The position numbers were made by a program, and so were the translations under genes. 18,020 bases of DNA from a virus (lineage: Duplodnaviria > Heunggongvirae > Uroviricota > Caudoviricetes), in IMG/VR virus record IMGVR_UViG_2657245664_000010; one strand, 5' to 3'. Under the pieces are notes generated by a model. The model was not told where the DNA came from. It saw only the letters and a program-made list of their open reading frames with translations, and did no database searches. This document shows positions 972-2,645 of this stretch, one piece after another. Each line of letters begins with the position of its first letter. The first letter of the stretch is position 1.

Positions 972-1795
972 ATCATCCACCCAATTTAACTGAAACCAGG
1001 ATGAAGTATATGCATATAAAGTTCACTTTGCCAAACTTCAGTATAAAAAACCACATAAAAAATAGGGTGTGATAAAAAATACCGTAAAAATAAAGCAAAG
1101 GATTATAAATTCCGTTACAGTTACAAATGATACTAAAGAAACAATTCCTTAGAAAACCTTATTTACAGCCAATAAGTAAGACACTTATATGATATCAAGT
1201 TTTCATAAAACATAACTAGGCTAAATAGCTGCGCCTAATACCGCTACACTTTTGCCAGCCCATGTTTGCCTCCGGGTATTGACCCCTTCTCTACGCAACT
1301 TCAGTTCCCACCACCAACTTTGCGGCAGCTTTGTAGGATCAATGTCTAAAAGAATAATGGTGACCGATAAGAAAACGACTGAATAACTGCAGATTTTCGC
1401 TCGAAACCTTCCTGTCAGATCCATAGCGAATCAAGTGCTGAATGTCACAGTATCGAACAGAAAACAGTGACGATCTAACCCTTCAAGAATATTCTACGAT
1501 TGTTCTGTTTAGGAAAAGCAAGGCGGGAAGTCGGGAGATAAGTCATTGATAAAGTGGCGGAGAGAGGGGGATTTGCCCCCCCGGTAGAGTTGCCCCTACT
1601 CCGGTTTTCGAGACCGGTCCAATCATCAAACGAAACATAAAATTAATTCACATTATGAGGAAAAGTATCTTTTTTGTACTTGTAAATTCAAAGGCTTAGC
1701 CTCATTTCCCCGATGGTTTTCTCAACACTACTGGTTGTGAGCCCTTGCAATGTTCATTAATATACGTCTCACAAATAATTCATAGATATTGCAAA

Positions 1796-2569
1796 ATGGA
1801 TATTACTGAGTTTCCTTCTGGAGTAATTGAACACCTTGGCTGGTATGTATACCGATTGATTGATCCGAGGGACGGAAGCACCTTCTATGTAGGGAAAGGC
1901 AAAGGTAACCGCGTATTTGCCCATATGCGCGGTGAAGTGGCAGCGACTGATGATGACGAGTTACTGAGCAACAAGCTAAAGCAAATTAGAGAAATAAGGT
2001 TAGCAGGACTTGAGGTTATCCATGTCATCCATCGACACGGAATGACTGATGAAAAGACGGCGTACGAAGTTGAAGCAGCACTTATTGATGCCTACCCTGG
2101 GTTAACGAATATCATGAATGGTGCTGGCAGCAATGAATTCGGCGCCGCGCATGTCAAAGAGTTGATAGCAACATATCAACCCGAAACCATAACATTTCAT
2201 CATAAAGCATTAATGATTTCCGTTAACAGAAGTGCAAAGGATTCAGAGCTTTATGATGCGGTTCGATTTAGCTGGCGCATTAATGTCTCTCGCGCCAGCC
2301 AAGCAGAAGTCATTCTTGCTACTGTAAGGGGGATCGTTCGAGGGGTTTTCATTGCTGATAAATGGCTCAAATCAACACGTGAAAATTTCCCTACGATGAA
2401 ATACTGGGACGAGGATCCGGACTTTGAGGCAACACAAAGTTCTCGCTATGGTTTTGAAGGTCGAGAAGCCCCACCTGAAATAGCAAATCTTTATCTTGGA
2501 AAAAAAATACCAGATGAATTAAGAAAAAAAGGAGCTATGTCCCCGGTCCGTTACTCACCTAATTTTTGA
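1796..2569 (+). CDS. GIY-YIG nuclease-domain protein with an uncharacterised C-terminal domain of about 160 aa
   Basis: N-terminal [33 protein letters not shown] fits the GIY-(about 10 aa)-YVG motif with the downstream Arg. A conserved Glu (YEVEAAL) and Asn (LTNIMNG) follow. It lies on the opposite strand to the flanking phage genes. The ORF track starts at a TTG at 1745; the ATG at 1796 is used here. Confidence 0.6.
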
Positions 2570-2645
2570 GTCTTTAAGTGATAAGCATAAACCGCAGCAC
2601 GATCTTGCATACGACGTGCTACGGCTTCCGACATCTTGCTAAACG

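Follow-up and report, generated by a model that had tools for sequence, protein, structure and literature searches.

An intact copy of CMoRE (PD-T4-3), a single-protein modified-cytosine restriction enzyme, is very probably encoded by a nuclease gene in the decayed prophage island at thrW of Escherichia coli SCU-118 (NZ_CP051716.1), to which the window, the whole 18,020-base stretch of DNA analysed here, is identical. The gene is read as a restriction enzyme because its product is 98.4% identical to an O157:H7 protein with published biochemistry and structure. PD-T4-3 was originally recovered from ECOR68 by Vassallo et al., who used functional selection in 2022 (PMC9519451); it was renamed CMoRE by Liu et al. 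in a Nature Communications article of 2026, published in January of that year (PMC12923530), and is included as a family in both PADLOC and DefenseFinder. The nuclease gene is accordingly not new: it has already been named, and its structure and mechanism have already been solved. The gene and the parts of its product are as follows.

1796 to 2569, + strand: probable CMoRE / PD-T4-3 coding sequence, 257 amino acids plus stop codon (open reading frame list, PADLOC, phrog_5356, PDB 9U75/9U7U, RefSeq annotation)
1796 to 2140, + strand: GIY-YIG nuclease domain at the N-terminus, with Y17, Y19, Y31, R39, E93 and N105; boundary approximate
1949 to 1960, + strand: acidic run D52-D53-D54-E55, the presumed autoinhibitory lid loop (residue check; loop role from PMC12923530)
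2174 to 2566, + strand: putative C-terminal modification-sensing domain, about residues 127 to 257 (aligned to 9U75/9U7U; role from PMC12923530; boundary approximate)

The identification is carried by matches that span the entire protein. The PADLOC model of PD-T4-3 (PDLC04031) was matched with E = 2.4e-140, protein residues 1-256 lying on model positions 1-255 of 256. Among solved structures, the O157:H7 CMoRE of E. coli (PDB 9U75/9U8D) was recovered with E = 3.7e-172 and 253 of 257 residues identical (98.4%), and the APEC O1 protein (PDB 9U7U/9U7Z) with E = 1.1e-150 and about 87% identity; the alignments with 9U75 and 9U7U cover residues 1-257 of the window protein, that is, both domains. 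Among the PHROGs families, a full-length match was obtained to phrog_5356 (2e-143), whose function is unannotated, and a search of NCBIfam with the nuclease protein gave no match. An earlier note on this DNA had proposed a candidate single-gene defence nuclease carried as prophage cargo, without being able to say whether it matched a defence protein already named. PADLOC supplies the name PD-T4-3, and the proposal itself is upheld by the full-length match to that family, by the identity to CMoRE, and by a constant genetic unit with variable flanks.

With the O157:H7 and APEC O1 proteins, the window protein shares its length, its two-domain and type I architecture, and its organisation as a single-gene system. 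Every residue named by Liu et al. is present in it, including R80, V92, L96 and Y127, so that the catalytic, interface, loop and ligand-contact residues of O157:H7 CMoRE all have their counterparts. The difference from that protein amounts to four substitutions, which in the direction from the window to the crystallised allele are T51A, E55D, Q169K and N197H. The same four separate the window allele from that of O157:H7 strain TW14359, and the window's own allele is also present in other O157:H7 strains. Two of the four positions, T51 and E55, lie in or adjoin the autoinhibitory loop, where residues 52-55 read DDDE in the window protein and in the APEC O1 allele and DDDD in the O157:H7 allele.

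The limits of the gene are set by annotation and by the crystallised protein. In the six-frame list, one long + strand open reading frame runs from a TTG start at 1745 to 2569, with an in-frame ATG at 1796. The RefSeq annotation of SCU-118, whose genome is identical over the whole window, starts the gene at this ATG, and the crystallised protein has the N-terminus MDITEF; on these grounds the gene spans 1796-2569, with a product of 257 amino acids. Its product is identical to RefSeq WP_000355484.1, a "LEM-3-like GIY-YIG domain-containing protein". The open reading frame and its features, as the earlier note had described them, are confirmed in kind and in position. The gene of about 258 codons has 257 amino acids, or 258 codons when the stop is counted; it lies on the + strand, opposite to both neighbours (228-980 and 2646-3059, each on the - strand); and the upstream region that had been called AT-rich, 175 bp at 1621-1795, has a G+C content of 32%, against 46% for the window.

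A GIY-YIG module had likewise been proposed at the N-terminus, and it was found, under another family model than the one expected. PF22945 (LEM-3_GIY-YIG) matched residues 28-110 with E = 2.1e-14 and 54.2 bits against a cut-off of 27, whereas the classical GIY-YIG model, PF01541, reached 13.9 bits and stayed under its cut-off of 22.6. Pfam gave no match to the C-terminal 150 amino acids or so, in agreement with the remark that this part resembled nothing familiar. The motif tyrosines Y17, Y19 and Y31 lie in GWYVY at residues 15-19 and FYVG at residues 30-33. Full-length homologues of the nuclease were identified by protein-level search in jumbo phages of Serratia, Pseudomonas and Klebsiella, and these homologues lack the acidic loop. 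In an alignment with them, at 40-47% identity, the three tyrosines are invariant together with R39, E93 and N105. From this alignment and the pattern of UvrC, R39 and E93 are taken to be the probable catalytic arginine and glutamate, residue numbers that are absent from the text of PMC12923530.

The activity of the near-identical proteins has been described by Liu et al. (PMC12923530). T2, T4 and T6 plated about five orders of magnitude less efficiently on cells with CMoRE cloned under its native promoter, and such cells survived high multiplicities of infection, which is why its defence is regarded as direct and not abortive. Purified CMoRE degraded T-even DNA and PCR products containing 5hmC or glucosyl-5hmC and left DNA with cytosine or 5mC undegraded; in infected cells, cytosine T4 escaped, while T4 with unglucosylated hmC did not. 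Cleavage was described as C N11 / N9 G, leaving 2-nt 3' overhangs and requiring two modified sites, and the hmC-containing T4 genome was cut throughout, with no strict sequence specificity, while host DNA remained intact. Structurally, the N-terminal GIY-YIG domain contains a third tyrosine, giving a GIYxY-YIG motif formed by Y17, Y19 and Y31, and a 15-residue insert with four consecutive acidic residues covers the active site; alanines in place of these acidic residues led to the cutting of ordinary DNA and to toxicity. The tetramer requires V92 and L96, and the C-terminal domain binds 5hm-dCTP, with Y127 contacting the 5-hydroxyl of 5hmC through its main-chain oxygen. The APEC O1 orthologue, expressed from its native promoter, provided weak defence (PMC12923530).

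Additional phenotypes come from other hosts and homologues. In the clinical isolate NILS69, deletion of the chromosomal PD-T4-3 gene raised the plating of two T-even-like phages, and K-12 was protected against four Tevenvirinae by a PD-T4-3 clone that included the gene's own upstream region (10.1101/2024.12.20.629700). In the same study, phage NIC06_P2 escaped PD-T4-3 in the native host but not when the gene was plasmid-borne, so that the strength of protection depends on context. A Capnocytophaga homologue with 48% identity proved modification-dependent in vitro: it cut T4 DNA and not T4-GT7 DNA, with Mu DNA cut as well when the enzyme concentration was high (PMC12366544).

Transferred from the published work on the 98.4%-identical O157:H7 protein, hmC-dependent cleavage and the restriction of T-even phages can be predicted for the window protein as well. 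The enzyme would act as a tetramer, arranged as a dimer of dimers, whose C-terminal domain would bind DNA containing 5-hydroxymethylcytosine or glucosyl-hydroxymethylcytosine. The N-terminal GIY-YIG domain would then cut the two strands at distances of about 11 and 9 nt from a pair of modified cytosines, and the acidic loop over the active site would spare ordinary and 5mC-containing host DNA. The expected outcome would be direct, non-abortive restriction of T-even-like phages.

Enzymes of the PvuRts1I / AbaSI family recognise 5hmC or glucosyl-5hmC, cleave about 11-13 / 9-10 nt away, at a fixed spacing, to leave 2-nt 3' overhangs, and prefer two symmetrically placed modified cytosines; they combine a PD-(D/E)XK catalytic fold with an SRA-like sensor domain. 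This family is a functional analogue of CMoRE, for which like cleavage has been reported (PMC12923530), but CMoRE relies on a GIY-YIG fold. According to Liu et al., the CMoRE sensor domain has no detectable homologue, and UvrC is the closest structure to its GIY-YIG domain (PMC12923530). The N-terminal domain of UvrC and the LEM-3/ANKLE1-like domains (PF22945) have the same catalytic GIY-YIG fold as CMoRE but have neither the third tyrosine nor the 15-residue acidic insert nor the modification-sensing domain, and their role is in DNA repair.

The surroundings of the gene comprise two neighbouring genes, the relic of a tRNA locus and the non-coding parts of a conserved unit.

228 to 980, - strand: AraC-family regulator, 28% identical to AppY, past the serU relic and outside the prophage arm
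1277 to 1620, - strand: serU-derived fragment of 344 bp (genome comparison, K-12 annotation, alignment)
1601 to 1620, no strand assigned: core of about 20 nt, CGGTTTTCGAGACCGGTCC, equal to the tRNA-Ser(CGA) anticodon stem-loop (aligned with K-12 serU and four further genomes)
1621 to 1795, + strand: upstream AT-rich region, presumed native promoter (composition; kept in five left-flank contexts)
2570 to 2628, no strand assigned: 3' flank moving with the gene, with an imperfect hairpin at 2592-2624 (alignment of four contexts)
2646 to 3059, - strand: 137-amino-acid, weakly tail-fibre-assembly-like protein, convergent with the nuclease gene (Pfam, PHROG)

The edges of the island are thrW itself, at 16577-16652, and a 48-bp sequence repeating its 3' end, located 262-309 bp past the window's left end in SCU-118. 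Leftwards from thrW, the integrase and lambdoid early genes are followed by quuD, a porin gene, essD-rrrD-rzpD and iss/bor, and next by head-gene remnants, a tape measure gene and the N-terminal remnant of a Mu-type DNA-circularisation protein. The left part begins with a Gly-rich tail-fibre C-terminus and the weakly Tfa-like gene, after which come the nuclease gene, the AraC regulator and an IS3 remnant. Tail-fibre families are matched in their C-terminal part by the stretch at 3059-3694 (phrog_863, 9.7e-33), and the protein at 2646-3059 matches Pfam Caudo_TAP below threshold (E = 0.0053) and PHROG tail-fibre-assembly families at about 1e-5. Over 236 amino acids, the AraC-family protein shares 28% identity with AppY (E = 3e-34) and, as judged from this alignment, is a relative of AppY and not AppY itself. 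When PADLOC was run on nine further open reading frames of the window, its only match was an orphan-methylase call on the phage N6-adenine methyltransferase, and no other defence gene was found among these nine.

The picture of the locus given in the earlier note, a layout like that of the K-12 prophage DLP12 with an extra gene between Tfa and an AppY-like regulator, holds in part. The order of Q, porin, lysis and bor/iss genes stands, and this Q-to-bor part does parallel DLP12; the Tfa label applies only weakly, the AppY-like gene is a relative at 28% identity, and the island lies at thrW, not at argU. A simple insertion into a DLP12 backbone was rejected on account of the thrW site, the low identity to AppY and the serU relic between the nuclease gene and the regulator. 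This 344-bp relic separates the two genes and so places the regulator outside the nuclease-bearing prophage arm. In most genomes, the tail genes beside the nuclease gene are of e14/Mu type. Within the arm, the nuclease gene would be the terminal cargo, placed between an old attachment-site core and the tail-fibre genes.

Comparison among genomes revealed that a unit of roughly 1 kb, about 1601-2628, is constant while both of its flanks vary. Its left boundary is the CGGTTTTCGAGACCGGTCC core. On the right, homology among genomes stops at about 2625-2628, 55-60 nt past the stop codon and at the end of the imperfect hairpin. This hairpin has a centroid energy of -14.5 kcal/mol and folds no better than shuffled sequence (z = -0.83); it was not called as a terminator, and no intrinsic terminator downstream of the nuclease gene was scored by the promoter/terminator scan. 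The right neighbour is pinE in 575 genomes, accompanied by an invertible tail-fibre segment and an e14/Mu-type baseplate, and a lambda-type tfa/stf/lom/J set takes its place in strain 204446. The junction in the window, with its Gly-rich fibre fragment and Tfa-like gene in place of the usual pinE, is rare and occurs in two of the 5426 genomes. On the left, the AraC regulator is the neighbour in the window, O157:H7, G4/9 and 204446, and elsewhere the position is taken by a type II restriction-modification pair, by a restriction endonuclease with a truncated integrase, or by an IS66 element.

The nuclease gene thus has no conserved partner gene and its neighbours vary on both sides, as expected for a single-gene system. 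Since the unit stays constant amid changing flanks, the gene is a self-contained cargo unit in a variable, defence-gene-rich neighbourhood and not a backbone gene. The possibility that it belongs to the backbone of related phages had been put forward as a test of the proposal, and pin-bearing relatives hold mcrA, other genes or nothing in the corresponding slot. The native promoter presumably lies within 1621-1795. As the consensus scan upstream of the gene found no sigma-70 site on the + strand, we infer both this promoter and expression; on the same footing, the window allele is taken to be expressed and active in its strain.

The left boundary also preserves an older position of the arm. 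In the fragment at 1277-1620, the 3' 65 nt of tRNA-Ser(CGA), at 1556-1620, are joined to 279 bp of the sequence natively downstream of that gene; about 5400 of the 5426 E. coli genomes have a serU locus that matches the fragment at about 97-99% identity. ARAGORN found no intact tRNA at this fragment, in which serU homology stops inside the anticodon stem-loop, at the core bounding the nuclease unit. Read from these alignments, the CGGTTTTCGAGACCGGTCC core is the relic of an attachment-site crossover, the apparent junction left by phage integration into serU. Because serU homology ends precisely at the boundary core of the unit, the nuclease-bearing arm would once have lain at serU, a site at which a lambdoid prophage sits in another strain. 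The arm would later have moved to the thrW island, either by inter-prophage recombination or by aberrant excision.

The other side of the unit leads to a comparison with a second restriction enzyme. EcoKMcrA is an HNH nuclease acting on 5mC/5hmC sites. Between the O157:H7 prophage and K-12 e14, pinE is conserved at about 93% identity, with homology ending at the stop codon, and past this stop e14 carries mcrA, the gene of the classical type IV enzyme EcoKMcrA, followed by the displaced end of icd. CMoRE and mcrA both lie just past pin, and two unrelated modification-dependent nucleases therefore share one position in related prophages. EcoKMcrA occupies the same slot, at the attachment-site end of a related prophage, but it is an unrelated protein encoded co-directionally with pinE, whereas CMoRE is convergent with pinE; moreover, e14 is integrated in icd and not in a tRNA gene. 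Pin-bearing relatives at other sites have an empty slot, or a DUF2335 protein with small hypothetical genes. Overall, the slot is occupied by McrA in K-12 and by CMoRE in roughly one E. coli genome in ten; elsewhere it has other cargo or is empty.

Three further proposals are tentative. At the pin-distal slot of e14-like prophages, type IV restriction enzymes may be swapped for one another; the serU core and the pin-proximal hairpin, as boundaries, may let the CMoRE unit move between prophages that differ in tails and integration sites; and jumbo phages may use their loop-less CMoRE homologues against co-infecting phages with modified cytosine. Taken jointly, these proposals are possible but less likely than not to be correct.

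Of 5426 complete E. coli genomes, 838 have the coding sequence at a nucleotide identity of at least 95%, and the same protein accession is found in many lineages. A DNA search of a phage collection returned no match, so that the allele is absent from the sequenced phages there. Eight matches labelled as plasmids proved a false lead, the one inspected being a chromosome fragment with ecp and pao genes. Between the window and TW14359 alleles there are 26 nucleotide differences, with 22 synonymous and 4 non-synonymous codon changes and dN/dS of about 0.05. The nuclease gene is intact in a prophage with at least eight annotated pseudogene fragments, which include those of the DNA-circularisation protein, a tail assembly protein, portal, HNH endonuclease, Rz1, DUF1364 and NinB.

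Two other readings of the gene have to be weighed against CMoRE. The earlier note had also allowed for a free-standing homing endonuclease of the Seg/Tev kind, which would cut relatives without the gene and spread by recombinational repair. Such an enzyme could account for the GIY-YIG catalytic domain and for a discrete unit of about 1 kb with sharp boundaries in different prophages, and the jumbo-phage homologues are indeed annotated as "putative homing nuclease". Yet no Pfam match to the DNA-binding modules of homing enzymes was found in the nuclease protein, and the C-terminal domain that would have to provide sequence-specific binding is, in the crystal structure, a modified-cytosine sensor (PMC12923530). 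The substrate of the near-identical protein is set by base modification rather than sequence, with host DNA left intact (PMC12923530), defence phenotypes have been obtained in three independent studies (10.1101/2024.12.20.629700, PMC12923530, PMC12366544), and the gene lies at a prophage terminus among variable cargo. A homing function is therefore exceedingly improbable and is abandoned in favour of restriction.

A more conservative reading accepts the enzyme but takes this copy for a silent passenger, intact by chance or through recent acquisition and either unexpressed or non-protective in a decaying prophage. The heavy degradation of the prophage around the gene and the consensus scan, with no consensus promoter upstream, are in keeping with it, and dependence on expression is on record, both in the weak defence of the APEC O1 orthologue from its native promoter (PMC12923530) and in the escape of NIC06_P2 in its native host (10.1101/2024.12.20.629700). 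A silent relic is nevertheless very unlikely because of the purifying selection indicated by the low dN/dS between alleles and because of the co-conserved upstream region, whose 175 bp are kept with the gene in every context examined. One protein accession is shared across many lineages, and the chromosomal deletion in NILS69 raised the plating of two T-even-like phages (10.1101/2024.12.20.629700), which also argues for a working CMoRE.

The finding closes the locus with an exact name and mechanism, and its value as a discovery is small; the CMoRE protein is known, and it is its genomic setting that may not yet have been described. In that setting, a tRNA attachment-site relic would record the earlier serU location of the nuclease-bearing arm, and two unrelated type IV enzymes are illustrated in one prophage slot. 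The locus also provides an example of a probable host-beneficial restriction gene surviving intact in an otherwise decayed prophage.

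Inside the thrW-bounded island, directly upstream of the ~1-kb nuclease unit, lies a serU-derived copy, 344 bp long (window 1277-1620), comprising the 3' 65 nt of tRNA-Ser(CGA) and 279 bp of downstream flank. This copy is ~97-99% identical to the real serU locus, and the homology stops within the anticodon stem-loop. The segment is an old attachment junction, and the prophage arm bearing the nuclease gene was therefore formerly located at serU.

The hairpin sequence lying downstream of the nuclease gene, TTGCATACGACGTG(G)CTACGG (window 2590-2628), recurs elsewhere immediately left of the core, the ~20 nt of anticodon stem-loop bounding the unit. 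These left-hand copies were compared with window 2590-2628 at three loci from other genomes (L011 5685-6005, L008 8879-9199, and L006 28705-29025). The second copy was found in genomes where something other than the serU relic forms the left flank, and in genomes with two copies the ~1-kb nuclease unit is flanked on both sides by direct repeats of ~25-35 nt, which may mark how it was inserted or exchanged.

One of these loci, L006, is the 30-kb record NZ_CP104634.1, listed as plasmid pHNAH212872-4, in which ykgM, ecpR-E, paoA-D, and other chromosomal genes adjoin the nuclease gene; this "plasmid" most likely represents a piece of chromosome that was misassigned. The genes directly adjoining the core on the left of the nuclease gene in this record are a type II restriction-modification pair.

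Two further features of the window:

4186-4716, minus strand: AT-rich ORF of 176 aa, 33% G+C
3059-4130, minus strand: truncated Mu-type DNA-circularisation gene and Gly-rich tail-fibre C-terminal ORF

The 176-aa ORF, with the tape measure gene on one side and the DNA-circularisation gene remnant on the other, aligns end to end with phrog_5485 (unknown function); Pfam and PADLOC gave no hit. Its composition and position suggest a second cargo gene in the tail module. The DNA-circularisation gene is broken off after ~180 codons and overlaps the Gly-rich ORF. Set against the O157:H7 prophage, the window has neither pinE nor the invertible fibre segment nor any of the baseplate, a rearrangement common to only 2 of 5426 genomes.

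The position just past the pin invertase varies between prophages (L004, K-12 e14, 6686-8180, versus L002 15080-15800; also L015 and L016). Between L004 and L002, pinE identity is ~93%, and homology ends at the stop codon.

Content of the pin-distal slot
K-12 e14 (L004 6686-8180): mcrA
575 genomes: CMoRE
Strain Z1323CEC0001: nothing
UPEC957C: DUF2335 protein and small ORFs

Since the slot holds mcrA in e14 and CMoRE in 575 genomes, one prophage slot is common to two unrelated type IV restriction enzymes.

Full-length PD-T4-3/CMoRE family proteins also occur in jumbo phages, including Klebsiella phage N1M2 and relatives, as well as:

L012 2501-3265: Serratia phage Moabite
L013 1492-2253: Pseudomonas phage OBP

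These homologues (38-47% identity; PADLOC E = 1.5e-76 and 1.9e-62), whose annotations read homing nuclease or hypothetical protein, keep the catalytic residues and Y127, and their autoinhibitory loop lacks the four-acidic-residue run. They might play a role in phage-phage competition.
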